Positions 14,960 to 31,426 of a stretch of DNA of 32,000 nucleotides are shown here, in pieces; position 1 is the stretch's first letter; every line of letters begins with the position of its first letter. The notes under the pieces are model-generated. The model had not been told where the DNA came from. It made no database searches and saw nothing but the letters and a program-made list of their open reading frames with translations. This DNA comes from an uncultured archaeon (GTDB lineage: Archaea > Asgardarchaeota > Thorarchaeia > Thorarchaeales > Thorarchaeaceae), in NCBI GenBank assembly GCA_964648855.1, contig CAZYLT010000011.1, positions 30,001 to 62,000 of the forward strand, read 5' to 3'. The position numbers were made by a program, and so were the translations under genes.

Positions 14960-15082
14960 TTTTACATCAACCACCATCACAAAGTATGCCAAGGTTATGT
15001 GGCTTGTGGCTTGCACATTAATTACTGGCATAATGGGCGGATATTCATTCGACCGCTTGGGTACTCGATGAGGCTATCAATA

Positions 15083-15676
15083 ATGAACAAGACCAGCATT
15101 GAAGTGGAAATAAAAATCAAGATTGACAATCTGGAGGCTGTAGGGCGACAATTAGAATCAATGGGGGCTAAGCTGAAGAATTCAGAAAAACAAGTCGACT
15201 TGTACTATAACCATCCATGTAGGGACTACTCGGTGACAGATGAAGCTCTGCGCATTAGAAGAAGAATCCTCGTTAAAACAGAGGGTGAAGAGAGCAACCT
15301 AGATAAATTTCCCCTCATCGAGATCACATACAAGGGGCCCAAACTTGACGAATCTACTAAGACGCGGGTCGAGCACTCGGTCGGAGTCAATAGTTACGAG
15401 AATGCTAAGCTCATATTCTCCTCTCTCGGTTTCATAGAAGTTGCTAGCATTGAGAAGCAGAGAGTCTTCTATACACATGGCGACATTACCATCAGCCTTG
15501 ACAATGTACTCGATGTTGGGTGTTTCATAGAGCTCGAAAGAATAGTTACTAATCCTGATTTGCTTGGCAAGGCCCGAAAAGAGATTCTAGAGTTGGTTGA
15601 ATCCCTCGGATACAGTATCAAGGATTCAATTCGAGAGTCCTACCTAGAATTATATCTTGCAAAAAATCAATCTTAG
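15083..15676 (+). CDS. cyaB: CYTH-domain protein (class IV adenylate cyclase / triphosphatase family)
   Basis: EVEIK (ExExK), DLYYNHPCRD, DEALRIR, TYKGPK, FIELE and SYLEL motifs. Start revised to ATG 15083. Confidence 0.9.
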   Translation: MNKTSIEVEIKIKIDNLEAVGRQLESMGAKLKNSEKQVDLYYNHPCRDYSVTDEALRIRRRILVKTEGEESNLDKFPLIEITYKGPKLDESTKTRVEHSVGVNSYENAKLIFSSLGFIEVASIEKQRVFYTHGDITISLDNVLDVGCFIELERIVTNPDLLGKARKEILELVESLGYSIKDSIRESYLELYLAKNQS

Positions 15677-16284
15677 CTAACTAGACCCATTTCTTTCTCT
15701 AGCTGAACCACAAATTCCTCCAGTACATTATGGCGATCTTGAGCCATCTGTTGTCCAATATCTGTATACATGAGGTCACGTAATTTCAGGAGTTTCTCGT
15801 GCGCATGCTGAAGAAAACCTTCGATGCCACGATTATCAACTGATGATTGCGCAACAGCTCGAAATACTCCAATAGCTCCTATTGCGTCTAGCTTATCAGC
15901 ATCACTTAGAATCTTTCCTTCGACATTTACGGCTTCTAAGCCTTCACTGAACCTATGTGTTCTAATCGTTTGAATAACAGACTCAATCTCTGAGTCCGAA
16001 TAGTTAAGGGTCTCCAGAATCTCTACACTCATTTCTCCTGAGAGTATCGAATGAGACTTTCCCGCCTCCTTTTCGAAAGGTCTACCGATGTCATGGAGCA
16101 GTGCGGAAGCGCCTAGTACTCGAATATTCACTTCCTCCTTTTGCGCCATCTCCAGTGACAGACTCAGGACTCGCTCAATGTGAGCATAAGTATGTGCTCC
16201 TATTTCATCATCGCCAAGAGTCTGTTTCACGTACTCTTCAATAGGTTCCCTCGGGAACTCGGTGATGTCTTTGGAATGATTCAA
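15673..16284 (-). CDS. HD-domain phosphohydrolase
   Basis: H...HIERV, LLHDIG, HRFS and DADKLDAIGAIG motifs. Probable TTG start at 16284; the longer ORF-track start overlaps the next gene. Confidence 0.9.
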   Translation of the reverse strand: MNHSKDITEFPREPIEEYVKQTLGDDEIGAHTYAHIERVLSLSLEMAQKEEVNIRVLGASALLHDIGRPFEKEAGKSHSILSGEMSVEILETLNYSDSEIESVIQTIRTHRFSEGLEAVNVEGKILSDADKLDAIGAIGVFRAVAQSSVDNRGIEGFLQHAHEKLLKLRDLMYTDIGQQMAQDRHNVLEEFVVQLEKEMGLVS

Positions 16285-16441
16285 CTGTAGTGTCTTCCTA
16301 TATCGATTTATTGAAGGGAGCCATGCAAGAAATCCTTTAAACACTACCCTCAGAAAGTCTGAATACCACCTGAGGATTTGCCTCTGTAGTGAAGTTTGTG
16401 GCTTCACAGATGCACGCCCAAGGAAGCCTAGAGGGACGCCA

Positions 16442-19400
16442 TTGAGTGCCAGCAAGACAGAGACCAAACGAAAAATGGGACTAGTCACAATAGCTAGCTC
16501 CTTATTCATTATTGCCACTATCGTTTGGGGGACTTATACCCTCATCATGATCCAGAGTGGAAACGTTAGAGCATATCAGCCACATCAACCATTCGATGAG
16601 ATTCCTCCTTGGGAATATGACCTTGATTGGGCTGGTGGACGAACCAACTGGTTTGAGAATGTGAACTACACTGATATTCCACTAGACCAAGAATTACCAG
16701 AGAATCTTCTTGAACAGATGGAAAATGTTGTATTTATCGCAGAACCGGACCAACCTGCTCAATTATGGCGGAATAGTGCTTACGATCAATACGACGGCTC
16801 AGGGTGGTCAAAAACTCAGGCTTCGCAATACACATTTTCTGGCATCTCACAAGAAGACGCGACAAATCAAGGTAATACTATCTATACAATTTACCTCAAT
16901 GTTTCTGTTGGACCTAATGTCGGTGAGATTGAATTGCCGACGATTTTTCCAGAGGCTCAGGTAATCCAAGGCTCATTTCAGAGTGAACCTGCAGGACGCA
17001 TTGAGAGTTATGAACTCTCTACCGATGATTATGGCACTGTACGATTTAGCCCCATGCTTTTGGGAGATACAAATGAAACTATTGTCGTAAGCTACGACGT
17101 GACATATACAGAACAAAATCAACAGAATATCTCGGATAATGCAGTAGAAGGCAGTGCTGCCCCAGCTAGTATCTCCAGTCTCTATACTGACCTCTCCCTA
17201 GTGGATGAATTGACTCCTCGCGTTCAAAATGAAATAGACCCATTCCGTGATGTGGGGGACAATGCGTATCAGAAGGCACGTGCAGTTGAAGTATACTTTC
17301 GTGATACTTATGACCTCATAATTGATGAGGAGCGCATAAATGAGAGACCTCCAAGTGACCGTGAAGTAACAGATTGGTTTATAGAACGAGGCGGGGGGCT
17401 GCCTATGGACTTCGCTACCGCCTATTGTGTCTTCATGCGCGACTTAGGAATCCCTGCAAGAATGACAATAGGTTATGCGCTTGGGGATGCTCAAGATGGC
17501 TATCGAATCGTCCGAGTACGTCATATGCTGTTTTATGCAGAGGTCTTCATTCCTCTTCAGGGTGGCGGCGGTGAGTGGATACAGGTCATACCTCTAAGTC
17601 TTCCCGATAATATGGGCGGTGGTGAACTCCCTGCAAATGCAGGAGAGGGAAATGTTTCACTGTACGTGTTTCCACCTCAATGGTCTCTCATTGGGGAGCC
17701 ATTCAACTTGAGTTCGCTCCTCCTAGTTAATGACATCCCTGTGGCTAGGAATGAAACAATTGTGTTTCATGATGAAACAGACAACGTTCCAATGGGCACA
17801 GCAGAGATTGAACAGGGAACTTACTTACCCTTGGCGAATATCACCTATACATTCCCCGATAATGCAACAGTTAGCGCCCATAATATATCCGCAACTTGGA
17901 ATTCTGATGCCTATTCGGTGAGCAATTTCACCATAGTATATGCTGTCGGTGAAGCTAATCCATTGTCGCCACAATCCGTTAGAACGAGCTCGAGTTTTAT
18001 GCCAAGCGAAACAACCGATGTGAATATCAAGCTGGGACTTGATAATTACACAGCTCATTGGGAGGATATCCTTCACGTCTATGGCACCCTTACTGTCAAT
18101 GGTCAACCTGTGGACGGCACAACACTGGATAACGATCAGATGCAGATAATGTGGGACGAATTGTTCTATGGAAATGCCACAATTCAATCGGACGGTTACT
18201 ATGAGATCGATATCTATGTTGACCCTGCTGATCTCCTTCGCATGACAACGGGTGACCACTTGCTATGGGCTCAGTATGCTGGTGAATACGACAGCGAAAC
18301 AGGATTTCCCGTCATATTGCCGGGTCGATCCCAAGATAACTCCACGGTGGAAGTTCGTGGCCATCCAAGCTTTGGCCTCTCAGTGTCTCCGACTGATACC
18401 TATGCTGGTTCAACCCTCACATATGAGGGGGTGCTAGAACTACTGAATGGTACGCCGCTCGTAGGTGAAACAGTTGGTATTATTCTAAATGGTACATTGG
18501 TTGATACGACCACGACTAATAGCTCAGGAGGATACATGTATGACTACAGTATTCCATGGGATTATCCTGCAGGCACTGTTTACGCACAAGTCAATTGGAC
18601 TTCAGGACTCACATTGATAGATGGAAATACAAGCGCCTCGATATCCGTGATTATCAGAGCCGGCCTAACCGACCTCACCATCGATTCATCACCGCGTTCG
18701 CCCGACCCAGTACATATCTTTGAGAACATAACCATCTATGGATATCTTACTGATGCCTCAAACGGAACTCCTTTGGCTGAACGAACAATAGACATTTGGT
18801 GGGAGGAAGATGGTTCGCCAGTACAAATCGGAAGCAATACTACAACAGCGACCGGTTATTATGAACTTGTATACACAGTTCCAAGCGGTTATGAAGGTGA
18901 AGTGACCTACTGGAGTGAATTCTCATCAACGGAACCATATTATCAGAGCAGTCGCTCAGTGAACCTTTCAATTATCGTGAAGAAGTATGACGTCACCATC
19001 ACTATCTCAGCTACTCCTGACCCGGTTAGCATTTCAGAGATTGTTTGCATCGAAGGTTTGGTAACTCTGCCGGAAATCCCTGCCTTGCTTCGAGATGCTC
19101 ATCTAACAATCTGGTGGCACAACTCAACTGGTACCTATAACATTACTGGGATATACACAAATTCAACTGGTGGCTACCTGTTTGATTACCAGGTCCCCAT
19201 AGACCATGAATTGGCAGCTGTGGAGGTCTGGACACAATTTATCTCTCCGTCTCCAGCACTGGCAAGTAACGAGTCCCAACATATCTCATTGTCAGTTTCA
19301 AACTACGCCTCAATTATCTCAGTCGATTCAAACTCAACCATTGTGCATTTGAATGAGTCCATTCTCATCTATGGCAATCTGCATTTGAACAACGGAACTC

Positions 19401-22400
19401 CGCTAGCGGGTTATACGGTGCAGATACAGTGGGACAACGGGTCCGTATACTACTTCAATGTCACAACAAATGGTGCAGGAGATTACTCATTCGTTTACAA
19501 CTTCTCACTGAGTCAAGACTCAGAAGGCATAGTAGAAGTTCAGGCAATTCACACCTCTATCAATCCCATATACAACAGCTCATCGGCATGGTTAAGTCCA
19601 TCTCTTATGGTGCAGCTCTATCAGCTGGACTTAACCGGCACTGTGAATGCAACCCAAGTTCATCAAGACGAAGTCCTCCTATTCTCTGGGACCCTTTCGT
19701 TTGTTGACAACGGTGCGCCAATATCCGGAGAAACAATAAGCGTCTTCTATGATCACGGTAATGGAACAGTTTCTGAATTCCTCAAGATAACAGATTCATC
19801 TGGCGGATATTCCTTCCTCTACAATTACTCATTCGCCGATGCATTGGGAGCTATCTACATCTGGGCAGAGTATACGAGCACTAACCCTCTTTGGGATAAC
19901 TCAACGTCTCCTACAAGGACTGTCCAAATAATTCTATACTCTCTCGACCTAACAACGACAACCAATAGCTCCACCTACTACCTTGATCAGGCTGTCTTCA
20001 TCTCTGGACAGCTTTCGTTCACAAACAACGGAACAGGGATTTCGAACGAACAGGTTCGTGTATTTTGGGATAATGGTACTGACGTGATTGACCTTGGTTT
20101 CCATACAACGAATTCAACCGGCTATTACAATCTGACGATTGATTTGTCGCCCCAAGATCACTCTCCGGGAGATTTCACGATATGGGCAAACTATTCCAGT
20201 TCAAATGCGCTTTGGGATAACGCCTCCTCATCCCCAGGCACTACCATCACACTACAGCTCTATCAAGTTGTTCTTGATGTCAGTATAAGTCCAAATCCGG
20301 TATACCTCAACGAAACTGTGACTATAACGGCACATCTCTACTTTATGTTAAACGGGTCAGACATTTTCGGTGCTGAGATTACTCTGTGGTGGTATAATGG
20401 AACCGATTTCAATCTGGTGACACTCACAACAGATCCTACGGGAGAGGTTTCTTTCGCATACGATAGGATGGACAGGGATACCACCCTCTCAGTGGAGATT
20501 TTTGCAAACTATTCGGGTTCAAGTCTTATCGAGAGCAAGGAGTCCACTCATCAGTTGCTCACCTTGTTGAGATGGTCTACAGTATTCTCTTCCATCAGTA
20601 CGGGCGGGACAACCTCTTATCACCCAACGGAAACCATCGTGATATCGGGAATCTTGTATTATGATGAACCAGATCCGGATGTGCCCTATGGAGGAGTCAT
20701 AGTGGAAATCCTGATTGATGGATCTGTGGTCAATTCTACAACGACTGCCTCAGATGGATCCTTCACTAGCTACTATACAATACCTGCATCAATTTCTCCT
20801 GGTACATACGATTTGACAACTAGATTCACTTCGTCGAACAACTGGGTGTCTGGTACGACATCAGCCCCTGTATCCATAGATATTGATGCCTATCAACTCG
20901 TTTGGACTTTAACACTGAACAGCGCAGTATCATATCCCATCACACTGTATCGGAGTGAATGGCTAAACATATCAGGAACACTAGAATTGGACGACGGAAC
21001 TCCGTATGGGGGACAGACTGTAGACATCTACTGGATATTAGTTGGCTCAGACGAACTCGCAGAATTCATTATTTCAGTCGTCACTCAACCAGATGGCTCA
21101 TTCCAATACCAGTTTAGAATTAGTGATACTGAAACGCTTGGTCTCAAGGACATCTGGGCAAATTGTACTCCCACAGACCCCTATGTTGCATCAGGAGAAT
21201 CCTCCTCTCGAAGTGCATTTATTGAACCGATTCCAGTTTCACTCACTGTATCCGCCGACGTATCTTTAGCATACTTGGGCGATACTATCACAATAAACGG
21301 TACACTCACTTTTGGAAATGGTACACCTATAGTCAATGAAGACGTAGAGATTTTCTGGAATGGTGGACTGATTGCCACTATAACAGTGGAAGATGGCATA
21401 AACGGCTCCTATATTCACTATCTGGATTTACCATACTTTGAAGATGTTGGCCTGATTGCCCTCTATGCGAGGTTCGTTCAGCCATCAGAAGCCTATTCTG
21501 AAGCCGAAACACCTGAAGAAATTATCGAGGTACGCGATCTCATCACAATCAGTTTCGATGCTCAAGAAATCTTTGTGGTAAATCGAGGTGACTCACTTGA
21601 AATGAGTGGCGGTGTCGCCAACGACGGCCGTGGAGTTGGAGACCTAGAGGTCGAACTGTTAGTCAACGGCACATCCACAGGGCTAACTACCACGACCGAT
21701 TCAAGTGGCAACTTCCTCTTCACCATTGTCGTAGAATCGGACCAAGAGGCTGGTTCGTACAATCTCAGTGTCATTGCAGTATCTAGCTACCGTGAGGTAT
21801 CGGCGGCATCAGACTACTGGATTGTAGATGTACACCTCCGTTCAATAGTTTCAATTGTGATTGACAGGGGTGGCGTTGTTCTTGTCGGTGAGAATCTTAC
21901 AGTTAGCGTCAATGTAGTGGATGAGGATGGAAATTCAGTAGGTGGAGAATATGTTGAAATCTACCTAAACAACACGCTCATGGAAACAATTACACTGTCT
22001 GGAACTGGGCTCTTCACCACCAACATCGATATCACTAGTAGCTGGGATGGCGGGAGTGGTCATTTTGTTGCTAGGGCTGTTTTCGCCGGTGTAGGGCTTA
22101 TTGACGCATCAAATGACACAAGTGATTCAACGGTACACATTGTTATGAATGTTGAAATCATTGATCTATCCCCCTCATCCGTCCTTCCTAACTCACCATT
22201 CTCGATATCGGGCCGATTAGTGGATGAGGAAGAGAATCCAATTGTTGGGCGAAGTCTTCGAATCTATCTAAACAGTTCGTCAGAATATCAAACCCCTTCA
22301 ACAGATGAAGATGGTGCTTTTACGTATTCTATTAGAACTGGGTATCCAGACCAATCTCGTTTGAACTACATTATTGCTCTTCATAGGAACGATGGGACTG

Positions 22401-22615
22401 AGTTCGACAGAGCATCGGGAACAGTTCTGATCCAGGCATCTTCTCCGCCCACCATAGATACTGTTATGATGATGTTTTGGACTATTTCTATTGTTGCCGA
22501 GATTGTTATCGGGTCTTTGCTACTGACCCGCTATCGTTCTTCAGGTGGCCCATTCAATCAAGGAATAACGATGGAGAAGAAAGAATCTATAGAATATAAG
22601 AAAGAAACAAGGTGA
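16442..22615 (+). CDS. Giant membrane-anchored surface protein: transglutaminase-like (TgpA-like) domain plus ~15 Ig-like repeats
   Basis: N-terminal basic plus hydrophobic segment; WRNSAYDQYDGSGW and FATAY..FMR.LGIPAR...GY transglutaminase-family motifs; ~105-aa beta-rich repeats; C-terminal TM helix and short charged tail. Confidence 0.88.
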   Translation: MSASKTETKRKMGLVTIASSLFIIATIVWGTYTLIMIQSGNVRAYQPHQPFDEIPPWEYDLDWAGGRTNWFENVNYTDIPLDQELPENLLEQMENVVFIAEPDQPAQLWRNSAYDQYDGSGWSKTQASQYTFSGISQEDATNQGNTIYTIYLNVSVGPNVGEIELPTIFPEAQVIQGSFQSEPAGRIESYELSTDDYGTVRFSPMLLGDTNETIVVSYDVTYTEQNQQNISDNAVEGSAAPASISSLYTDLSLVDELTPRVQNEIDPFRDVGDNAYQKARAVEVYFRDTYDLIIDEERINERPPSDREVTDWFIERGGGLPMDFATAYCVFMRDLGIPARMTIGYALGDAQDGYRIVRVRHMLFYAEVFIPLQGGGGEWIQVIPLSLPDNMGGGELPANAGEGNVSLYVFPPQWSLIGEPFNLSSLLLVNDIPVARNETIVFHDETDNVPMGTAEIEQGTYLPLANITYTFPDNATVSAHNISATWNSDAYSVSNFTIVYAVGEANPLSPQSVRTSSSFMPSETTDVNIKLGLDNYTAHWEDILHVYGTLTVNGQPVDGTTLDNDQMQIMWDELFYGNATIQSDGYYEIDIYVDPADLLRMTTGDHLLWAQYAGEYDSETGFPVILPGRSQDNSTVEVRGHPSFGLSVSPTDTYAGSTLTYEGVLELLNGTPLVGETVGIILNGTLVDTTTTNSSGGYMYDYSIPWDYPAGTVYAQVNWTSGLTLIDGNTSASISVIIRAGLTDLTIDSSPRSPDPVHIFENITIYGYLTDASNGTPLAERTIDIWWEEDGSPVQIGSNTTTATGYYELVYTVPSGYEGEVTYWSEFSSTEPYYQSSRSVNLSIIVKKYDVTITISATPDPVSISEIVCIEGLVTLPEIPALLRDAHLTIWWHNSTGTYNITGIYTNSTGGYLFDYQVPIDHELAAVEVWTQFISPSPALASNESQHISLSVSNYASIISVDSNSTIVHLNESILIYGNLHLNNGTPLAGYTVQIQWDNGSVYYFNVTTNGAGDYSFVYNFSLSQDSEGIVEVQAIHTSINPIYNSSSAWLSPSLMVQLYQLDLTGTVNATQVHQDEVLLFSGTLSFVDNGAPISGETISVFYDHGNGTVSEFLKITDSSGGYSFLYNYSFADALGAIYIWAEYTSTNPLWDNSTSPTRTVQIILYSLDLTTTTNSSTYYLDQAVFISGQLSFTNNGTGISNEQVRVFWDNGTDVIDLGFHTTNSTGYYNLTIDLSPQDHSPGDFTIWANYSSSNALWDNASSSPGTTITLQLYQVVLDVSISPNPVYLNETVTITAHLYFMLNGSDIFGAEITLWWYNGTDFNLVTLTTDPTGEVSFAYDRMDRDTTLSVEIFANYSGSSLIESKESTHQLLTLLRWSTVFSSISTGGTTSYHPTETIVISGILYYDEPDPDVPYGGVIVEILIDGSVVNSTTTASDGSFTSYYTIPASISPGTYDLTTRFTSSNNWVSGTTSAPVSIDIDAYQLVWTLTLNSAVSYPITLYRSEWLNISGTLELDDGTPYGGQTVDIYWILVGSDELAEFIISVVTQPDGSFQYQFRISDTETLGLKDIWANCTPTDPYVASGESSSRSAFIEPIPVSLTVSADVSLAYLGDTITINGTLTFGNGTPIVNEDVEIFWNGGLIATITVEDGINGSYIHYLDLPYFEDVGLIALYARFVQPSEAYSEAETPEEIIEVRDLITISFDAQEIFVVNRGDSLEMSGGVANDGRGVGDLEVELLVNGTSTGLTTTTDSSGNFLFTIVVESDQEAGSYNLSVIAVSSYREVSAASDYWIVDVHLRSIVSIVIDRGGVVLVGENLTVSVNVVDEDGNSVGGEYVEIYLNNTLMETITLSGTGLFTTNIDITSSWDGGSGHFVARAVFAGVGLIDASNDTSDSTVHIVMNVEIIDLSPSSVLPNSPFSISGRLVDEEENPIVGRSLRIYLNSSSEYQTPSTDEDGAFTYSIRTGYPDQSRLNYIIALHRNDGTEFDRASGTVLIQASSPPTIDTVMMMFWTISIVAEIVIGSLLLTRYRSSGGPFNQGITMEKKESIEYKKETR
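17654..22440 (+). repeat. Tandem array of ~15 diverged Ig-like domains (protein-level repeat)
   Basis: Recurring pattern i.i.G.L....G.P..g..v.i.w...tT...G.y.f.y......G...iwA.y about every 105 aa. Confidence 0.8.
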
Positions 22616-22622
22616 AAAAAAC

Positions 22623-23075
22623 ATGCAGCTTGAAACAATAATGCCAATTGCCGCCGTTACTGGCGCCATCATAGTCGTGCTGCTATATCTCTACTACGTA
22701 AAGGGATACTTCAGAAATAGTGAATCCATCACAAGTGTAGACATGCCCCAAAAACTGCGAAAAATAAAGAAGATGGCTGATTCTGGCAAGTACGACGAGG
22801 CTATTATTCTAGCATATCGAACGTTTGAAGAGATGGTTGGAAATAAGACACGTTCGAGTCGTGCGAGCTCGGAAACAGCTCGTGAATTCACTGACCGCAC
22901 ATTGAAGATTCTTCCACTTGACGCTGAGAAAGTTGATACCTTTATCGGCATCTATCAGAGAGCCCGGTTCTCAAATCACAAAGTATCCCGCGATAGCTAT
23001 GAATCTGCAATCAAGATATTCACAGACATCTATCCTCGCATAGAAGGGGCAACACCATCGGTTGCAGCAGCTTAG
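22623..23075 (+). CDS. DUF4129-domain single-pass membrane protein
   Basis: N-terminal TM, then GKYDEAIILAY, SETAREF and YQRARFSNH. AGGTGA SD upstream. Confidence 0.85.
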   Translation: MQLETIMPIAAVTGAIIVVLLYLYYVKGYFRNSESITSVDMPQKLRKIKKMADSGKYDEAIILAYRTFEEMVGNKTRSSRASSETAREFTDRTLKILPLDAEKVDTFIGIYQRARFSNHKVSRDSYESAIKIFTDIYPRIEGATPSVAAA

Positions 23076-23111
23076 ATATTACGGAGTCGGAAAATAAAGG
23101 AGTCAACGAAA

Positions 23112-24497
23112 ATGGGTTGGAAAGAAGCAATGCAAATCACGCTCTTCATTCTAGCCTGGATTCCGATTGGTTTTCTAGCTGTCACAACATTCTCTGGTGG
23201 CACAGAAGCCTACCCTCAAGATTTCTCGGTATTCAACTCGGATTGGAATGGGTTGAGTGACTATCGGATTCAGATTGAAGAACAAGGTTATGACGTTAGT
23301 GTGATTCAGTCTACAATGAGCACAGTCACTCGCTATGATGGAAATGCAGTTCTTTTCATAATTGGTCCTGTGAGGGACTTTACAATCGATGCAACATTGA
23401 CGATCTTCCAGCATATACTAGGTGGTGGTACGGTTGTTATTGCAGATGATTTTGGTACAGCCAACACATCATTTTCATTGTTGAATGAATACCTTCTCGA
23501 TGTAATCGGAGCTCAGTATCTAGAGGCACTAGGCGTTGATGGGTTTGTTTCCTTTGCCGATGGTGTTCTTCTAGATTTGGACTCCTATCACATGACGCCT
23601 AAAGTTCCTGTCATTCGCAATTTCGTCTTGCATCCCCTTACTCAGGGAGTCGATTCTCTTTATCTCAATAATGCCACAGTGCTCTCTCCAACCAGTGCAC
23701 TTGGATTCGCTGGAATCGCCCGTACAACTTCTCGGGCTTGGTGTGAAACAAATATCTCCGACCCGCGTCCTTCACCAAATGAAGGTGAGCTGTCCGGTGT
23801 ATTGCCCGTTGTTGGAGCAATTGATATTGGTTCTTTTCGCGACGGTGCCGGAAAGCTGGTGGCAATATCCGACCCAAGCCTTTTCATAAATGATATGTAC
23901 ACCAGGTTTGAGGGCAACAGAAGGTTTGCTATGAACGTTATAGATTGGGCAACAGAGGGTTCTAGCAACGACACAATCATATTTTCAGAACAGCTTCTTG
24001 CAACCCCCATTTACTCTTCTGAGTTCTTTTTTGGGGCATTTCTCGGGAGGATATTTTGGGCATCCACCAACCTGTTCCTAGCACCGGTATATCCCTTGAT
24101 GACTGCAATTGGCATTAAGAAGTACTTACCAGACATGAAGAAGCCCGAAGTTAAAAGCGTGTCAGAGGTATTCATGAGGAAGGGGCAGACATACTTCAGC
24201 GAGCGCATGTCTTACTATAGAACAGAGGGCAACTATGGGCGAGTAGTGAGGATGCTATATCGTCGATTGCGACGTGGATTACAAAAACAATACCATTGGA
24301 CACAGTTTGACCCCCGTGAGTTATGGGAGATTGTGAGCCATAAAATGCCCAACATGGAGAAGGAAACTTTCTTCGAAACAATTGATAGAATTGAAGAAAT
24401 AAAATCGAAGTCGGACATCAAAATTAGTGAAGACGAAATGATGAGTTTGTTCTTCTGGATGCGTGACATCCAAACCAAACTGATTGAAACAAAATGA
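23112..24497 (+). CDS. DUF4350-domain membrane protein
   Basis: FSVFNSDWNGLS, GGTVVIADDFGTAN, GKLVAISDPSLFINDM and N..F..N motifs; N-terminal TM and a second hydrophobic stretch. Confidence 0.85.
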   Translation: MGWKEAMQITLFILAWIPIGFLAVTTFSGGTEAYPQDFSVFNSDWNGLSDYRIQIEEQGYDVSVIQSTMSTVTRYDGNAVLFIIGPVRDFTIDATLTIFQHILGGGTVVIADDFGTANTSFSLLNEYLLDVIGAQYLEALGVDGFVSFADGVLLDLDSYHMTPKVPVIRNFVLHPLTQGVDSLYLNNATVLSPTSALGFAGIARTTSRAWCETNISDPRPSPNEGELSGVLPVVGAIDIGSFRDGAGKLVAISDPSLFINDMYTRFEGNRRFAMNVIDWATEGSSNDTIIFSEQLLATPIYSSEFFFGAFLGRIFWASTNLFLAPVYPLMTAIGIKKYLPDMKKPEVKSVSEVFMRKGQTYFSERMSYYRTEGNYGRVVRMLYRRLRRGLQKQYHWTQFDPRELWEIVSHKMPNMEKETFFETIDRIEEIKSKSDIKISEDEMMSLFFWMRDIQTKLIETK

Positions 24498-24511
24498 GGT
24501 AGAAGATAATA

Positions 24512-25498
24512 ATGACTGCAGAATCGACAGATACGACCATGGGAAACTCAGAATCTCCCATGTCTATATCACAGGTACATGATATTACAGACGAAATCAT
24601 CCGTGAGTGTGGCCGAATCATAGTTGGAAAAGTTGAAATCCTTAGAGACGTTCTGATTGCGTTTCTATCTGACGGACATGTTGTACTTGAGGGCGTTCCT
24701 GGCTTGGCAAAAACCTACATGGCTAGAACATTTGCATCAATACTAGGATGTGCGTTCAAGAGAATTCAACTAACAGTTGATACATTGCCCGCTGACCTAC
24801 TGGGAACAAATGTTTTCAATCAGCAGACTGGCGAATTTTGGTTCCGAAAAGGGCCAGTCTTTGCGAATCTGGTTCTTGCTGATGAAATAAACAGATGCCC
24901 TCCAAAATCACAGAGCGCTCTATTAGAGGTAATGGAAGAGCGTCAGGTTTCCACTGAGGGTGTCACGCGGAAGCTACCTAGGCCGTTCCTAATCATTGCC
25001 ACACAGAACCCGGTTGAGCAAGAGGGCACCTATCCACTTCCTGAAGCTCAGCTTGATAGATTCATGTTCAGATTAGTTTTGGATTACCCTACTGGAGCTG
25101 AAGAGGCAGAAGTCATTCGTCGTAAACATAGAGGTGAAGTTGATGACCTCCGAGTACTGGTGAATCCACAAAGCATTGTCAAACTGCAAGATGCTTGTAA
25201 AACTGTGTACATGGATGAGGATATCATTGAGTATATTCGAGATATTGTGGTCAGAACCCGCAACGACCCACAGATCTTGCTGGGAGGGTCTCCTAGAGCG
25301 TCCCTCGTTCTTATGAATGCGTCTAAGACGCGGGCTGCCATGCTTGGAAGAGATTATGTGATTCCTGAAGATGTAAGAAAACTCTCGTTACAAACCCTAA
25401 ATCACAGGCTCATTCTCAAGCCGGAGGCTGAGCTTGAAGGACTCACTGTTAAGCGAGTTGTAAGCAAGATTCTCGGAGAAGTCGACATTCCAAGATAG
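24512..25498 (+). CDS. moxR: MoxR-family AAA+ ATPase
   Basis: GVPGLAKT, LADEINR, SALLEVMEE, ATQNPVEQEGTYPLPEAQLDRF and GSPRAS motifs. Confidence 0.96.
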   Translation: MTAESTDTTMGNSESPMSISQVHDITDEIIRECGRIIVGKVEILRDVLIAFLSDGHVVLEGVPGLAKTYMARTFASILGCAFKRIQLTVDTLPADLLGTNVFNQQTGEFWFRKGPVFANLVLADEINRCPPKSQSALLEVMEERQVSTEGVTRKLPRPFLIIATQNPVEQEGTYPLPEAQLDRFMFRLVLDYPTGAEEAEVIRRKHRGEVDDLRVLVNPQSIVKLQDACKTVYMDEDIIEYIRDIVVRTRNDPQILLGGSPRASLVLMNASKTRAAMLGRDYVIPEDVRKLSLQTLNHRLILKPEAELEGLTVKRVVSKILGEVDIPR

Positions 25499-25509
25499 AA
25501 CCCAGAGGA

Positions 25510-26841
25510 TTGCGAATATTGATAACACAGAGAGGTTGGATTGTTCTCTTTTCCGGCGTGTTACTACTCACTAGTGGATTCTCCTTTGATAATTTCTACC
25601 TCACACTGGTAGGAGTATATTTACTCGTTGGATTAGTGGTGACGCTTCCTCTCTTCGCAATGACAGCAAATCTTTCGGGAATAGAAGTTGAGCGCTACAT
25701 CGATAAGACGAAAATTTTCTCAGGTGATTTTCTCAAGGTCAAAGTAGTTGTAAAGAACACCTCAAGAAGACACTTTGACTTTATCGAGGTACATGATCAA
25801 TATCCCGAAACCTGGATATTGGCGATCGGCGAAAATTTCATCGCATCACGAATCGAACCCAATAGCAGCATTACTTTTTCATATATTGTTCAGGTCAGAA
25901 TGCGCGGTTCCTATTATCTAGGACCAACTGAGGTCATAATGAGGGACCGACTGGGCCTCCATTTCTACAAGCGCACAGTTAGAGAAAGAACCCAGATGCT
26001 TGTGTACCCAACTTGGAAGGATGTACGAAGACTCGAAGCTATCGGGAAGCAACGGCAACTGGGACTGATGTTCGGAGCTCATAGAACAAAGGTCGTTGGT
26101 ATGGGTACTGACTTTGCAGGTTTCAGAGATTATGTCCCAGGTGATGCTTTCAGGGTAATTGATTGGAAAAGCAGTGCTCGACGTGGGGATATGATTGTCA
26201 AACAATATGAGATGGAGAAAAACGTCCAAATCATCTGCATGGTTGACTCCTCGGGAAGTATGGGAAATGGCTATCCTGAAAACACCAAACTAGAATATGC
26301 GATACGTGCAGCTGTACTTCTAACTAATCTTGGGCTAGAACGCAAGGACCTTGTGGGCACCTGCGTCTTCAGCAATCTGGTGCATTCATATGTTTCCCCC
26401 TCTTTGCATCCGAATCATATGTACGACGTTTTGGAGGCATTGGCACGTGCGGAGCCCACTGGCTGGAGTAACTATGAGGCTGCCATATCTCATGTGACCA
26501 GTCAGACAAAGAATCGTTCATTCATAATCTGGCTCACAGACCTGGAGGAGTCTCCTGCTCCACTGCTCAATGCCATGAAGAAAGTCGTTGCGAATGGGCA
26601 CCAAGCTATGGTCATCAGTCCCTTTGGTCCGTGGTTTGAGGCACCAATAGGTCAATTCGGCCCTGTTGAACGAGTGTTAGCTGAAGCGGTTTCAGAAGAA
26701 TTATGGGAGCGCCGCCTCAAGATTTCTAGAGCGCTTGCCAGATTTAGCATAGATGTTATCAATGTGGGTCCAGAGGATTTCTTGCCAACAATAATCAAAC
26801 AATACGAGAATGCAAAGCAACGGGGGGTTGGAATGTATTGA
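25510..26841 (+). CDS. DUF58 / VWA-domain membrane protein (MoxR partner)
   Basis: Two N-terminal TMs, RG.Y.LGP, LVYP, RDYVPGD..R.IDWKSSAR and MIDAS DSSGS motifs. Confidence 0.93.
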   Translation: MRILITQRGWIVLFSGVLLLTSGFSFDNFYLTLVGVYLLVGLVVTLPLFAMTANLSGIEVERYIDKTKIFSGDFLKVKVVVKNTSRRHFDFIEVHDQYPETWILAIGENFIASRIEPNSSITFSYIVQVRMRGSYYLGPTEVIMRDRLGLHFYKRTVRERTQMLVYPTWKDVRRLEAIGKQRQLGLMFGAHRTKVVGMGTDFAGFRDYVPGDAFRVIDWKSSARRGDMIVKQYEMEKNVQIICMVDSSGSMGNGYPENTKLEYAIRAAVLLTNLGLERKDLVGTCVFSNLVHSYVSPSLHPNHMYDVLEALARAEPTGWSNYEAAISHVTSQTKNRSFIIWLTDLEESPAPLLNAMKKVVANGHQAMVISPFGPWFEAPIGQFGPVERVLAEAVSEELWERRLKISRALARFSIDVINVGPEDFLPTIIKQYENAKQRGVGMY

Positions 26842-28226
26842 AGACAGTCACATGGATTCTAAGAGCACTTTCAACGTTGGCATTCATTGCCATGTGCTGG
26901 ATTGTCTATAACATTATGTCTGGCTTATGGGATTGGAACGCTCCGTATGTCTTCATAGTCACGACCTTCAGATTGCTTTCAATGGTGCTGTTTTTTGTTG
27001 CGTCTATAGTTATTACCGGATTAGTAGCTGGCATCACAGGTTCCCAACCAGGCCCACTCGTAGTTGGACTGTACAATACACTGGTGTTGAGAGGATGGTA
27101 TCTGCAACCGTTTGGTGTCAGCGGTCCTTTCACCTCTGTGGAGGCAATATTTCAGAACTTCATTTTCAACTTGTTCAATATTTGGGAGATATTGCAGGTT
27201 AATACTTTCATCTTCATCTATTTCCTGTTCGCCGCACTGGGTGTCGCATTATTCCTCCAATCTCTCGTCAGAATGAATCACAAATTTGTTGGAGGGGCAT
27301 TTTTGGCTATTCAGGGAATCTTGGTGATGGCCGCATTTGCAGAATTTCTTGTTAGCCAAGGTATAATCACGGCACCACTCTTGGCCACTGCAGATATTCC
27401 CAACTTCGAGCTCTTTCCGACTGACATTCTTGTATTTCTCACCAGCAGCCCTCAAATACTTGCACTGGTTTCATTTGCATATCTAGAGTTCAGTTACCAG
27501 ATGCTGTATAGCGACTCGGTAGGAAAACCAGTTGAAGAACGAGAAGAGACCCTGAAGAAACAATTGCTGGCACTTCGACAAGAAACAAGGAAGCAAGATG
27601 AGATTGAACGTGATGAGAAGATCAGAACAACAGGAATGAGTAGCGTTTCTGGAGCCACCGCATTTTCTTTCTTGAGAGAGGCAATTGAACGCAAGGTTCT
27701 TGGTCGAAAAGATGCAATCGAGAATCTTGATGTAATCTCTGACGTAAGACGATTACAGATTTTTGTCGATGAATTGCTTAGTTCTGACCCCGAAGCAAAA
27801 AACAACTTGACTGCTTCTGCGGCAGCCCCCTCAGAAAGTTATGTCATCATATCTACCATACTGGGTTCTACAATTCGTTTTGCTGGTGTCATCATGCTAT
27901 CGTTTGTTTTCATGAATCCCGCATTCTTCATAGCTTTCTTCAACCTGCCTCCTGGCATACAAAACAGTGTCGAGATTGCACAGCCTGAAATGGTTGTCTT
28001 CTTCCTTCTACCTATCTTGTTATTGTTCCCCCTTGTTGCCATGATAATCGTATTGTTTACAAGAGATGAGGTAACCACCCCGGACAAGGAAAAAACTGAG
28101 GTCAAGAAGGAGAGCATAGTCCAGAAGCCGGCAAGAAGAAGGAAACGAGCCTCAAAGTCGAAAAGGGAACGCAAGCCTGAAGAAGATGAATGGGACCGAG
28201 CTCTTGAAAAAGAATTCAAACGATGA
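26838..28226 (+). CDS. Hypothetical multi-pass membrane protein
   Basis: About 8 hydrophobic segments, a central charged helical loop and a K/R/E-rich tail. TTG start overlaps the DUF58 stop (TTGA). Confidence 0.8.
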   Translation: MKTVTWILRALSTLAFIAMCWIVYNIMSGLWDWNAPYVFIVTTFRLLSMVLFFVASIVITGLVAGITGSQPGPLVVGLYNTLVLRGWYLQPFGVSGPFTSVEAIFQNFIFNLFNIWEILQVNTFIFIYFLFAALGVALFLQSLVRMNHKFVGGAFLAIQGILVMAAFAEFLVSQGIITAPLLATADIPNFELFPTDILVFLTSSPQILALVSFAYLEFSYQMLYSDSVGKPVEEREETLKKQLLALRQETRKQDEIERDEKIRTTGMSSVSGATAFSFLREAIERKVLGRKDAIENLDVISDVRRLQIFVDELLSSDPEAKNNLTASAAAPSESYVIISTILGSTIRFAGVIMLSFVFMNPAFFIAFFNLPPGIQNSVEIAQPEMVVFFLLPILLLFPLVAMIIVLFTRDEVTTPDKEKTEVKKESIVQKPARRRKRASKSKRERKPEEDEWDRALEKEFKR

Positions 28227-28247
28227 AGGAATGAGGTTCTATATTTG

Positions 28248-29216
28248 ATGCAGAGTGTTGTACTTACCCATGGTGATGTAGATGGCATAACAGCTGGCGC
28301 AATAGCCTTGCTCGTTTCTCCTGGTGCTACCTTCTACTTTACACGACCATCCCAAATACACATGGATTTATTTCGTATAGCAAAGGATCGTCCCGATAAG
28401 GTCCGTATAAGCGACATAGCAGTCAACAGGAAGCGATTTCCGGAAGTTATTCGGGCCCTTGATAGGTTTCCCAATCACACCGAAATTACTTGGATTGACC
28501 ATCATCCAATTCTTAGCAAACATAGGAAGGAATTGGAAAAACGAGTTGACTTCTTTCATGAGAAGGGCCCAAGCGCGGCTGAATTAGTTTACAAAAAATA
28601 CCAAGAGAAGCTTCCTGAACACGCCATCCATCTCGCACTATATGGAGCGATTGGTGATTTTTGTGATGACACCCCATTTGCAAGAGAACACCTGGAAGAC
28701 TATGACAAAAGAACACTCTACCTTGAAGCAGGGCTTTTAGTACAGGCTCTGCAAGAAATAGACTATCGCAGAGAATCCAAAGACCTTGTTCGAGAGCTTA
28801 CATTGGGAGTACCTCCCAGTTCTATGAACAACATCGTCGAGCTTGCAATGAAAGCCACAAGAATTGAACATGAGGTCTTCAATTATGTAAAACAAAACGC
28901 TCGGAAGATGGGTGAGGTAGGATATATCTTGGATATGCCAATTTCAGGATACCGTGGGAAATCCGCAAAATTTGCTGCATATGTCACACAATCCCGTGTA
29001 GGAATAAGCGCCAGGTCTTTCGCTGATGTGATAGATATGAGCCTGCGAAGAAGAGGTCCACGTGTTGATTTAAATAAGACTCTCATCGAGATTCTTTCTA
29101 GAATCGATGATGCACATGGTGGAGGGCATCCTGCAGCCTCCGGGGCGACGATGAAGAAGGAGGATTTTCCCGGATTCCTTCAGAAATTGACCGAGTATGT
29201 TTCCGAGAGGACCTAG
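28248..29216 (+). CDS. DHH/DHHA1-family phosphoesterase
   Basis: THGDVDG, ISD, WIDHH, GD and GGGHPAASG motifs. Confidence 0.92.
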   Translation: MQSVVLTHGDVDGITAGAIALLVSPGATFYFTRPSQIHMDLFRIAKDRPDKVRISDIAVNRKRFPEVIRALDRFPNHTEITWIDHHPILSKHRKELEKRVDFFHEKGPSAAELVYKKYQEKLPEHAIHLALYGAIGDFCDDTPFAREHLEDYDKRTLYLEAGLLVQALQEIDYRRESKDLVRELTLGVPPSSMNNIVELAMKATRIEHEVFNYVKQNARKMGEVGYILDMPISGYRGKSAKFAAYVTQSRVGISARSFADVIDMSLRRRGPRVDLNKTLIEILSRIDDAHGGGHPAASGATMKKEDFPGFLQKLTEYVSERT

Positions 29217-31426
29217 ACAAAGAAACTAATGGCGCTCCAAAGCACCCAAATGACAGTCACAATCGCTTCTCCGGCGACGACCCCACTCAAAATCCTACTT
29301 ACTCGCTCGTAGCGAGGCGCGTCTTTCGCAATACCACATGAGTCTATTTCATTCGAACCGACCGTCTCTTTACTCATTTGGTAGTTAATACATCCACCAA
29401 TGAGCATGGCCGCTGTTGTTGCCGGCGGAATCAAGAGGCCAACTGCAAGGCTCATTGGGCTCATGCCCCTTCTGTTTAGTTCTCTTCCTGCCAAGAATCC
29501 TATTGCTCCAAACACAAAGAGATAAGCAAAAGCGAGAAGAGGATGAAGATTAGGAAGTTGATCAAGACCTGGCATCTCCAGATTGCCCAGGCCTGCCAGA
29601 CTGATAACCAGGAATCCAAAAAGTTGTGCTGCAGGACTTGGAAAATCGGCTCCGCCAAACCCGTAGATAAGAAAAATCATATACGTAATCAATGACCCTA
29701 CTAACGTTCCAAGAAGGGCTCCAACAAACACTGCTTTGAAAATATCCCTCCCATTTACTCCAGTTAGGGTGCCCAGTTTCAAGTGAACCAATACTGCGAT
29801 GGCAGCATCCTGAAGTGCACCTAACATCGACATGAAAGTGATAATTGCTGCAAATGATATCCGGAACAAGAGAATTGCTGGAATTGCCACCATGTCGGAA
29901 AAATAGCCAGCAAGCATTCCGGTTTCACTTATTGATCTTGCTGTGAAATAAGCAGAAACCAGTGCTAGGGGTGAGCCAATTGCAAATAGGAGCCAATGTA
30001 TTTGCAAACCGGAAAATAGCCTTAACACCCCAAAAACAAGGATTCCAACTGTCATGAATATTAGCATAGAAGTGACAGCAACCCATGGGGGAATCTGCCC
30101 CCTTCTAGAATCCAAGTACGCTCTGGGGTCAGACACCATTGCACGAATCTCCTCTTTTATCGCCTTAATTGAGAATAACTGCCCTCTTACTCTCATGAGC
30201 CTATCAAGTTCAGAGGGCGAATGTGGGTCTTCTATGACTACACCCTGATATTCATTGAATTCCGTATTCTGCTCATTGACCGAACGTTCAAACTCATCGC
30301 GTGATAATTCGTCAGGACTTCTACTCGTGACAACATCCCCAAGAATAATAGATGCAAACACTCCTAGCGCAAGATAGAGAATCTCTGGTCTAGTGAGATG
30401 TTCTCCAAAGGGAATGAATGCAGCACCCTCAATAGCCAGCCATATGACTAGAGAGGCGAGGCTTCCCGCTGCCATGACTAAGACCCGCTTCCATCCAACA
30501 AAGAACCCAATGGCTGCAATTAATGGTGAATTGCTAATCCCTATCCAATCCGGGACAATGGGGTTCACTGCATGAGGAAAAGAGCTGAACGTGGCTGGTG
30601 CTTGTGTTCTAGAACTGACTACATACTCTGCAGCTCGTGTGGCCGCAGTCCAAGATGCCGCAGCTCCAAGGCCTGCTATTACCGCTGTCTTTGTGTCTAC
30701 ATCTGCACCAAGGCAATTGATGCACTCCGCCTGAGGCAAAACTTGCGGCCAGGGCTCATTCATGAATCTATCCCTAAATGGCACCATTAGAATCAGTCCA
30801 AATATCGCGCTCGCTCCTGTCACGAAGGCTATAAATTGATACGTAATTAGCGATGAAGCGATACTCGGCTGAAAAATGGCGATGGCCGGAAAAGTGATTA
30901 GAACGCCAATGGAAACCATGGACGAGCTATTGGCTATAGATACGACCACTGCATTTTCTTCCGGAGTGTATTTTCCAAACATTGTCAAAATCAAGAAGCC
31001 CAGTAATTCCGCCCCAACGAAATAGACAACACCCAGCTTCAGCGCGAGATAAATGCCCAAGAAAGTCATGACTACTCCAACTATAACGCCTGTAGTCAAC
31101 GCTCTCTTAGTCAAGGGAAACTTTGGCTTACTGGTAACAAAACCGTATATTGCCAAGCTACCTGCAGCCATTACAACAATCTCTGAAAACGCACCCAAGA
31201 CTAGCGATAATGAAACATAAAGCACTACTCCTAGGCACAGCAGACCTAGGCTCTTTTTATCAAGGGGCCCCGTAACCAAAGAACCGACCAGAAGCACAGA
31301 TTCGATCACTATTGTGGTGATGACACCATAGTCCGTCCTACCCTGAAAGAGAACGATAAGTGCATAGAAAAGCCCTGCAATATATAAACCTAGCAAGAGA
31401 GCTCGGTCTGACTTGGGCTTCTTCAT
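29213..31426 (-). CDS. OPT/YSL-family oligopeptide transporter
   Basis: LTKRAL..G, YLALKLG, EEN, ETG, FPSPAA and SGVVAGEAI motifs; many TM helices. Confidence 0.85.
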   Translation of the reverse strand: MKKPKSDRALLLGLYIAGLFYALIVLFQGRTDYGVITTIVIESVLLVGSLVTGPLDKKSLGLLCLGVVLYVSLSLVLGAFSEIVVMAAGSLAIYGFVTSKPKFPLTKRALTTGVIVGVVMTFLGIYLALKLGVVYFVGAELLGFLILTMFGKYTPEENAVVVSIANSSSMVSIGVLITFPAIAIFQPSIASSLITYQFIAFVTGASAIFGLILMVPFRDRFMNEPWPQVLPQAECINCLGADVDTKTAVIAGLGAAASWTAATRAAEYVVSSRTQAPATFSSFPHAVNPIVPDWIGISNSPLIAAIGFFVGWKRVLVMAAGSLASLVIWLAIEGAAFIPFGEHLTRPEILYLALGVFASIILGDVVTSRSPDELSRDEFERSVNEQNTEFNEYQGVVIEDPHSPSELDRLMRVRGQLFSIKAIKEEIRAMVSDPRAYLDSRRGQIPPWVAVTSMLIFMTVGILVFGVLRLFSGLQIHWLLFAIGSPLALVSAYFTARSISETGMLAGYFSDMVAIPAILLFRISFAAIITFMSMLGALQDAAIAVLVHLKLGTLTGVNGRDIFKAVFVGALLGTLVGSLITYMIFLIYGFGGADFPSPAAQLFGFLVISLAGLGNLEMPGLDQLPNLHPLLAFAYLFVFGAIGFLAGRELNRRGMSPMSLAVGLLIPPATTAAMLIGGCINYQMSKETVGSNEIDSCGIAKDAPRYERVSRILSGVVAGEAIVTVIWVLWSAISFFV

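Follow-up and report, generated by a model that had tools for sequence, protein, structure and literature searches.

What does a giant surface protein do beside a MoxR-type ATPase, which of the surrounding genes belong with it, and is such a locus a new kind of system? These questions are raised by a cluster of seven genes in a 32,000-nucleotide stretch of Thorarchaeota DNA (the window), which corresponds to positions 30001-62000 of contig CAZYLT010000011.1 from a 3.1-Mb, 94.6%-complete genome. The genes, designated g1 to g7 in their order along the DNA, encode a TgpA-like surface protein (g1), a DUF4129 protein (g2), a DUF4350 protein (g3), a MoxR AAA+ ATPase (g4), a DUF58 protein with a VWA fold (g5), a polytopic membrane protein (g6) and a DHH phosphoesterase (g7). 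We find that the locus is the Thorarchaeota form of a single-copy operon carried by nearly all sampled Asgard archaea. The conserved core consists of five genes, which take the form of six open reading frames (ORFs) here because the first of them is split. The locus belongs, as a variant, with both the MoxR-DUF58-TgpA/YebA operon and the arCOG01314 system.

An earlier examination of the letters of the window (hereafter the sequence-only reading) had described seven co-oriented genes with tight gaps and one overlap, had named domains for each gene, and had placed transmembrane (TM) segments in five of the products. This description holds. The seven ORFs occupy positions 16442-29216 of the + strand with gaps of 7, 36, 14, 11, -4 and 18 nucleotides (Table 1), the negative value being the stop/start overlap TTGA at the g5/g6 junction, and sites resembling Shine-Dalgarno (SD) sequences are found at the junctions of the cluster. 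Pfam confirms all of the named domains, with g6 having no match. By hydrophobicity, g1 and g5 have two TM segments each, g2 has one, g3 has a clear segment and a weaker one, and g6 has seven.

A five-gene core shared by Asgard archaea

The source had been taken for a probable Asgard archaeon, and it is a member of the Thorarchaeota, with a DUF58 protein that is 97% identical to that of Candidatus Thorarchaeota archaeon TEKIR_14 from the same genus. The order g1-g6 is found in 23 of 24 genomes of the window's family and in 13 other Asgard families (14 in all). A g6 homologue was located in 38 of 41 relatives, and about 16 kb around each was searched with the proteins of the window. Across approximately 110 related genomes the gene order recurs in every locus of sufficient length, a recurrence that is far beyond chance.

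Synteny at the depth of the family carries no functional signal in itself, since the unrelated genes that border the cluster, a divergent gene for an HD phosphohydrolase and a convergent gene for an OPT transporter, are also syntenic there. These flanks are syntenic in the window's family only and are gone in the 13 other families, and the core order of TGase-like/DUF4129, DUF4350, MoxR, DUF58 and g6 is kept without them (TGase, transglutaminase). The same five genes are present in six non-Thor loci, whose labels are Hodarchaeota, Freyarchaeota, Jordarchaeia, an unplaced Promethearchaeota metagenome-assembled genome (MAG), an uncultured archaeon and a MAG labelled Thermoproteota. Among the 80 best species-level loci found by a DUF58 search, which are almost all from Thorarchaeota and reach little outside Asgard archaea, every long-enough stretch contains the core. 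The sequence-only reading would have been refuted if the giant and multi-pass proteins had not accompanied moxR and DUF58 in related genomes; the four do co-occur throughout the phylum, and the reading passes this check.

One locus (L116, CP070658.1) was considered as a counterexample lacking g1-g3 and was rejected because of an assembly gap of 300 N inside its moxR gene. In this MAG, which is described as a complete chromosome, the 300 N at ~9300-9640 mark a scaffolding join, with the operon's upstream half absent.

A profile of g6 matches 276 of 301 Asgard genomes that are at least 80% complete, representing 25 of 30 families, mostly in single copy. In the source genome DUF4129 and DUF58 are each matched once; for AAA_3 and for DUF4350 a single match exceeds the cut-off and is clearly the best, with weaker ones elsewhere.

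A TgpA-like head in which the catalytic triad is replaced

The product of g1 begins with a TM segment (residues ~12-35), followed by a beta-sandwich and TGase-like head (~78-385), immunoglobulin (Ig)-like repeats (501-1975), an extra C-terminal TM segment (~2006-2030) and a short basic tail. It matches Transglut_core (PF01841, E 4.9e-11, above cut-off), and its repeats match Pfam families of the CarboxypepD_reg/Big/MG4 type. An AlphaFold2 (AF2) model of residues 1-520, with a predicted local distance difference test score (pLDDT) of 80, contains a TM helix, a poorly predicted linker, the beta-sandwich, the TGase-like core and the first Ig domain. The best PDB match of the modelled head in Foldseek is 6g49, the periplasmic domain of Pseudomonas aeruginosa TgpA (E 9.6e-13, target TM-score 0.65), and the same chain is also its best match by sequence, though a weak one. 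The multi-TM domain TgpA_N/DUF3488 is not found in g1, which has a single N-terminal TM segment and no Pfam match to this domain at E <= 0.01.

In an alignment with 6g49 and 26 Asgard homologues, the positions of the catalytic Cys, His and Asp are occupied by Pro321, Leu363 and Ile383, so that the earlier designation of g1 as a pseudo-transglutaminase is borne out for all three residues. Every Thor-family homologue examined has Pro, an aliphatic residue or Thr, and an aliphatic residue at these positions. The sister family (L027) has Asp/His/Glu, homologues of the Hod type and others have Ser/His/Asp, L046 has Gly/His/Asp and L133 has Cys/Tyr/Asp, with an intact Cys/His/Asp being present in L048 and L128 of the Frey/Jord type. 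The motif around the lost Cys, GGGLPMDFATAY..GIPAR, is almost invariant in the Thor family, and the head is therefore a maintained pseudoenzyme and not the product of a decaying gene. We infer from these replacements that the head has no catalytic activity and is limited to binding. The triad is lost by degrees, being intact in some lineages, with Ser for Cys in others and entirely gone in Thorarchaeota, and this series provides a natural experiment on the need for catalysis.

A hidden Markov model iterated on g1 resolves the array at residues 501-1975 into 14 tandem units of about 106 residues each. Between 7 and 15 repeats are present in Thor relatives and between 0 and 5 in other Asgard lineages. 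Across the family, identity is ~80% for MoxR and DUF58, ~50-60% for g3, g6 and g2, and 32-42% for the g1 array. The identity of the array and the variation in repeat number bear the marks of surface-type evolution.

The first core gene is split in the window

The product of g2 matches Pfam DUF4129 (E 1e-9). Many relatives encode in a single ORF what is divided between g1 and g2 in the window, in the order N-terminal TM segment, TgpA-like (TGase-like) head, Ig repeats, one further TM segment and cytoplasmic DUF4129. The two parts are fused in 36-40 of 57-59 readable junctions (the ranges are from two scripts) and split in the remainder. Fused forms read ...TGGNMQL.. and continue into the TM segment and DUF4129; in the window, the same MQL forms the start of g2. 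Here g1 ends with an inserted segment of ~50 residues that has its own TM segment, a conserved W...E...RYR, a basic tail and a stop codon, and an SD-like AAGGTGA overlaps this stop ahead of g2. All outgroup loci are fused, which indicates that fusion is the ancestral state, and on a tree of MoxR plus DUF58 the junction changes state about four times. By this comparison g2 is the detached C-terminal part of a TgpA-like protein and the window carries a split derivative. The two proteins had been counted as separate components by the sequence-only reading; the fused relatives make them halves of one ancestral TgpA-like protein.

A third junction state occurs in one Thorarchaeota clade, in which the fusion is kept and is followed by a further DUF4129 gene that has no TM segment (L035, same contig as L098, ~8240-8700). 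The lack of a TM segment in this second gene fits a soluble, cytoplasmic domain. Programmed frameshifting or read-through that would join g1 and g2 was considered and rejected: g2 lies in another frame, and a second in-frame stop codon follows soon after that of g1. A frameshift is also countered by the inserted TM-coding segment, which is carried by split forms and not by fused forms.

The C-terminal TM segment of the split-form g1 (22460-22615 in the window; also in L018, L019, L022, L037, L038, L040 and L041) has a conserved Trp, a Glu in mid-membrane and an RYR exit. In g6, Arg347 in the sixth TM segment is near-invariant, and S377, E384 and P392 are invariant. An intramembrane charge pair is conceivable.

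DUF4350, MoxR and DUF58/VWA proteins

The product of g3 has an N-terminal TM segment (residues 9-27), an ectodomain (~30-295), a second hydrophobic segment (~300-330) and a cytoplasmic tail rich in Lys and Arg. It matches DUF4350 (PF14258, E 5.5e-13) and ABC_transp_aux (E 3e-10).

The full AAA_3 profile (PF07726, positions 1-131) is matched by g4 with E 3.4e-62, and AAA_lid_2 (PF17863) with E 7e-21. Both the Walker A (GVPGLAKT) and Walker B (LVLADEINR) motifs are intact. No other strong AAA_3 match occurs in the genome, and the protein is 80-84% identical across the family. The same region also matches bpMoxR (PF20030) with E 7e-11 and 42 bits, compared with 209 bits for AAA_3.

The g5 gene starts 11 nucleotides after g4, and the adjacency of MoxR and DUF58 is kept in all loci examined. 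Its product matches DUF58 (PF01882, E 4.6e-28) and VWA_2 (PF13519, E 6.7e-10), and consists of an N-terminal hairpin of two TM segments followed by a domain with a VWA fold and a composition of the cytoplasmic type. The metal ion-dependent adhesion site (MIDAS) is intact, with DSSGSM at residues 246-251 (D246-S-S248-G-S250). Among 12 Asgard homologues, D246 and D344 are invariant and S248 is nearly so.

An apparently phylum-restricted membrane protein

The sixth protein has five TM segments, a charged coiled-coil cytoplasmic loop of ~115 residues, two further TM segments and a basic tail. Neither g6 nor 21 homologues have a Pfam match, even at E <= 1, or an NCBIfam match. It is represented by 125 clusters among 1.84 billion representatives, and the named members are hypothetical proteins of Thor-, Njord- and Helarchaeota, except for one partial record from a Korarchaeota-labelled MAG in a Njordarchaeia cluster. 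In the loci examined, g6 always follows DUF58 directly. The AF2 model of g6 (pLDDT 76.8) has no Foldseek match with E <= 0.001, its best VIA match (Z 7.7) is to generic helical bundles and lies within the tool's stated noise range, and a search of the ESM Atlas returns Asgard hypothetical proteins only. On these searches, g6 appears to be a conserved membrane partner that is restricted to the phylum among named members.

Predicted topology

Topology was assigned from hydrophobicity, the positive-inside rule and amino acid composition. Four Lys/Arg residues precede the N-terminal TM segment of g1 and RYR follows the C-terminal one, flanking charges that suggest an inside N terminus, a large outside loop and an inside C terminus. 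The N-terminal hydrophobic stretch is ~24 residues long and is conserved in the family along with the following IQxGxVR, and we read this length and conservation as those of an uncleaved anchor. The membrane probably holds the giant protein by both of its ends, in which case the Ig array would form an arch with the head near the membrane. The sequence-only reading had pictured an Ig stalk tipped by the head; with a conserved TM segment at the N terminus of g1 and another TM segment at its C terminus, the stalk is doubtful and an arch with a membrane-proximal head is probable.

Composition separates the segments predicted to lie on the two sides of the membrane. Outside, Lys accounts for 0.4% of residues in the g1 head, 0.4% in the Ig array and 0.8% in the g3 ectodomain, with 2.4, 3.4 and 1.5 N-X-S/T glycosylation sequons per 100 residues, respectively; the g1 ectodomain as a whole has 0.4% Lys and 61 sequons. 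Inside, the values for g2, the g3 tail, MoxR, the soluble part of DUF58 and the g6 loop are 4-11% Lys and 0-0.9 sequons per 100 residues. The inside-type composition of its soluble part places the VWA domain, as predicted here, on the MoxR side of the membrane. Together with the TM segments, composition predicts the arrangement that had been proposed from the letters, with AAA+ and VWA proteins in the cytoplasm and TGase-like and Ig domains outside.

The outside segments are nearly free of Lys and keep Arg, and most Asgard g1 homologues are likewise poor in Lys. The protein that avoids Lys in this way descends from an enzyme that cross-links Gln to Lys.

The DHH gene is a neighbour

The product of g7 matches DHHA1 (PF02272, E 5.4e-7) and, weakly, archaeal RecJ, and its translation contains the motifs HGDVDG, IDHHP and HGGGHP. 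The sequence-only reading had included this gene in the module. By its full model, the cluster would be a seven-gene apparatus with the DHH phosphoesterase as a nucleotide-signalling or output arm. Such a role would suit the position of g7, which begins 18 nucleotides after g6 with an SD-like site and no T-run, and the presence of a DHH gene there in 42 of the 69 loci that could be assessed. However, the gene is absent from the other 27, is lacking in about 40% of Thorarchaeota loci and occurs in no non-Thor Asgard locus; OPT or other genes come directly after g6 instead. In four family genomes with g1-g6 in place a g7 query found no match at all, and in G025 the DHH gene is unlinked, on another contig. 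As the HD and OPT flanks are also conserved in the family, synteny at this depth is uninformative. The distribution largely refutes the seven-gene model, which we regard as very unlikely; g7 is a dispensable neighbour outside the system proper.

Relationship to known systems

The operon of MoxR, vWA and YebA, the last containing a transglutaminase-like (TGL) domain, is very common and has been proposed to encode a degradation machine (Zhang and Aravind 2012, PMC3495828). In P. aeruginosa, PA2875-PA2874-tgpA is one transcript, tgpA is essential, and the periplasmic domain of TgpA has transglutaminase activity (Milani et al., PMC3507681). In Rhizobium, the MRP-type MoxR RL3499 is required for membrane integrity and cell shape (PMC3893208). 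The Asgard locus shares with the bacterial operons (PA2875-PA2874-tgpA and the Bacillus subtilis yeaC-yeaD-yebA type) a MoxR-proper ATPase beside DUF58/VWA, and with TgpA/YebA proteins the series of extracytoplasmic TGase-like domain, TM segment and cytoplasmic DUF4129, which here is provided in trans by g2. In contrast to the TgpA operon, the Asgard locus has lost Cys-His-Asp, has one N-terminal TM segment instead of the multi-TM DUF3488, carries 14 Ig-like repeats between head and TM segment in a protein that is split in two, includes extra DUF4350 and g6 genes, and has a different gene order.

The neighbourhood of arCOG01314 (DUF4350) contains MoxR, an Ig/vWA protein, and Ig-like surface and small membrane proteins, for which a secretion or membrane-remodelling complex was proposed (Makarova, Galperin and Koonin 2015, PMC5898192). 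The membrane-anchored DUF4350 ectodomain protein, MoxR (COG0714), Ig/vWA, Ig-like surface and polytopic membrane proteins are common to that system and the Asgard locus. The latter differs in its TgpA-like head, its fixed five-gene order, the g6 protein (Asgard-only among named members) and the predicted cytoplasmic location of vWA. The DUF1616/COG4743 component (PF07760), which is frequent but not obligatory in the arCOG01314 system, has no match in the seven window proteins. A Haloferax larsenii plasmid encodes DUF4350, MoxR, DUF58, DUF1616 and a 748-residue protein with an N-terminal TM segment, CarboxypepD_reg repeats, a TM segment and DUF4129, which is the layout of fused g1 and g2. Downstream of DUF58 on H. 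larsenii plasmid pHl5678-2 (L134, 11680-14446) are a 139-residue protein with four TM segments and a 300-residue protein with an N-terminal coiled coil and two TM segments. Their layout alone resembles that of g6 cut in two; the g6 profile shows no similarity to either.

The Esr system of oral Actinomycetota (bioRxiv 10.64898/2026.09.08.750141) and the PFNA cluster of Bifidobacterium (PMC8430577) have the same combination of ~14 Ig/FN3-like repeats, MoxR, vWA/DUF58 and a transglutaminase-family protein. Among relatives of the theme, Esr alone has a role established by genetics, namely surface sensing. It differs in its beta-propeller sensor head, in its separate and apparently active TGase that serves as an anchoring enzyme, and in its Ser/Thr kinase, phosphatase and FHA signalling proteins, none of which is found in the Asgard cluster. 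Eukaryotic dynein/midasin AAA+ proteins and the ciliary TGL domain of CC2D2A/MKS6 offer a further parallel, as there too a MoxR-clade AAA+ protein has a functional link with a membrane-associated inactive TGL domain that is predicted to bind peptides (Zhang and Aravind 2012); this is proposed as an evolutionary analogy only.

Possible functions

We think it reasonably probable that MoxR and VWA act in the cytoplasm as a chaperone that assembles a glycosylated surface complex or switches its state, with the five-gene core forming one membrane-spanning assembly. Outside the cell, this assembly would present the N-glycosylatable, Lys-poor TgpA-like protein, with its binding-only head and 14 Ig-like repeats, together with the GldG-like ectodomain of g3. 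The TM helices of g1, g2, g3 and g5 and the seven of g6 would form its membrane part. DUF4129, the basic g3 tail, the coiled-coil g6 loop, the tethered DUF58 protein with its MIDAS and a hexamer of the MoxR AAA+ protein are predicted to lie inside. The MIDAS of DUF58 might hold the cytoplasmic domain of a membrane partner, for which DUF4129 is the likeliest candidate because the trio of MoxR, DUF58 and TGase-DUF4129 is kept from bacteria to archaea. MoxR would then spend ATP so that the complex is assembled, matured or conformationally switched, and the outcome would be control of surface glycoprotein display on an envelope without an ordered S-layer. Gene content and order, their conservation, the fold of the head, the loss of the triad and the intact ATPase and MIDAS motifs are shown here; the topology is predicted, and we infer which parts bind each other, which way signals run and what the complex does for the cell. 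A housekeeping role at the envelope is supported by the near-universal single copy and by the envelope phenotypes of the bacterial counterparts.

Several points weigh against this proposal. The topology on which it depends was derived from simple rules and composition, and the N-terminal TM segment of g1 could be a cleaved signal peptide, which would change the geometry. In the scheme of Makarova et al. the vWA protein is a secreted one (PMC5898192), and in that of Zhang and Aravind the TGL domain is cytoplasmic (PMC3495828). Moreover, near-universality fits a housekeeping role and does not separate an assembly chaperone from a sensor.

Such a sensor would act from the outside in, as in Esr, with the head and Ig array detecting a ligand or neighbouring cell and the signal passing to DUF4129, DUF58 and MoxR to produce a cytoplasmic response. 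Genetic evidence shows that Esr, in which 14 Ig-like domains form a filament that ends in a sensing domain and is combined with MoxR, vWA and transglutaminase, senses epibionts, and the PFNA cluster likewise unites an FN3-repeat protein with MoxR, DUF58 and TGase. The fast-evolving and length-variable ectodomain of g1 would suit contact with other organisms, and peptide binding is the expected property of TGase domains that are inactive (PMC3495828). We nevertheless judge this mode of action rather unlikely, as no kinase, phosphatase, FHA, beta-propeller or effector gene is present in or beside the cluster in any Asgard locus examined, and the anchoring of g1 by its two ends probably keeps the head close to the membrane. 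MoxR here scores far higher with AAA_3 than with bpMoxR, and a single copy in nearly every genome resembles a housekeeping function and not a conflict system. No PADLOC match was obtained, and a reading of the locus as a defence system was rejected on this ground. A second possibility, that the membrane proteins form a conduit through which MoxR and VWA power or gate the export of other proteins, seems improbable. An archaeal secretion system of this kind was predicted in 2015 from the similarity of DUF4350 to GldG, an ATP-binding cassette (ABC) auxiliary protein linked to gliding and the type IX secretion system, and from membrane and Ig-like neighbours (PMC5898192). In line with it, g3 also matches ABC_transp_aux, and g6 has seven TM segments, no known fold and invariant polar residues. 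However, Asgard loci have no substrate genes, ABC ATPase or permease, or secretin-like component beside the core, and g1 is the sole large extracytoplasmic protein that is always present. In addition, MoxR ATPases are maturation chaperones and not translocation motors (PMC3893208), and the VWA protein is predicted to be cytoplasmic.

ATP-dependent degradation close to the membrane, in which VWA recruits substrates, MoxR unfolds them and TGL cleaves them (Zhang and Aravind 2012), is the least credible of these mechanisms. Although Cys-His-Asp is intact in L048 and L128, replacement of all three catalytic residues throughout the Thor family refutes it for this locus, and the TGL domain is predicted to lie across the membrane from MoxR and VWA, as shown for TgpA (PMC3507681).

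Roles of the assembled complex in adhesion and in sensing are possible. More speculatively, and with low probability, the module might build and actuate one of the Asgard 'complex surface proteins' of cryo-tomography, such that a glycosylated Ig arch with a peptide-binding head, controlled by MoxR and VWA, mediates syntrophic cell-cell contact. Those proteins have not been identified, and the envelopes that bear them have no ordered S-layer (PMC9834061). If this were true, the module would be a prokaryotic inside-out adhesion device and a living example of the pairing of MoxR with inactive TGL that has been proposed as the root of dynein/midasin and ciliary TGL proteins.

Few prokaryotic modules without a known mechanism are as widespread as the MoxR-DUF58-TgpA theme, and Asgard surface proteins are thought to be relevant to the cell-cell contacts behind eukaryogenesis. 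A near-universal, single-copy operon in which a giant surface glycoprotein is coupled to AAA+ and VWA proteins in the cytoplasm offers a concrete candidate for one such surface structure. The value of this finding is tempered by precedent: the locus is not a new kind of system, as systems of its kind were predicted in bacteria in 2012 (PMC3495828, PMC3507681) and in archaea in 2015 (PMC5898192).

Gene coordinates and neighbouring features

Table 1. Genes and sites of the cluster, in window coordinates
Feature	Position	Strand	Basis
g1: TgpA-like pseudo-transglutaminase surface protein, 2057 aa	16442..22615	+	ORF, Pfam, AF2 model, Foldseek
Degenerate TGase-like catalytic positions Pro321, Leu363, Ile383	17402..17590	+	Alignment to TgpA 6g49 and 26 Asgard homologues
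g2: DUF4129 protein, 150 aa, N-terminal TM and predicted cytoplasmic domain	22623..23075	+	Pfam, junction comparison
g3: DUF4350 / GldG-like (arCOG01314-type) protein, 461 aa	23112..24497	+	Pfam, composition
g4: MoxR-proper AAA+ ATPase, 328 aa, predicted cytoplasmic	24512..25498	+	Pfam, motifs
g5: DUF58 protein with VWA fold, 443 aa	25510..26841	+	Pfam, MIDAS alignment, TM segments
g6: polytopic membrane protein, 462 aa	26838..28226	+	Homologue spread; no Pfam match
g7: DHH/DHHA1 phosphoesterase, 323 aa, lineage-specific neighbour	28245..29216	+	Pfam DHHA1

Upstream of the cluster, at 14999-16518, a CYTH / class IV adenylate cyclase-like gene (+ strand) overlaps the HD phosphohydrolase gene (- strand) tail-to-tail by 4 nucleotides. 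Because the longest HD ORF extends past the start of g1, the true start of the HD gene is probably further in. At the other border, the OPT-family transporter gene (29213-31426, - strand, 737 residues) shares a tail-to-tail overlap of 4 nucleotides with the end of the DHH gene, which leaves no room for a terminator on either strand. Elsewhere in the window, an ORF of 743 residues at 7988-10219 (- strand) has as its sole Pfam match a SWIM zinc finger at the cut-off.

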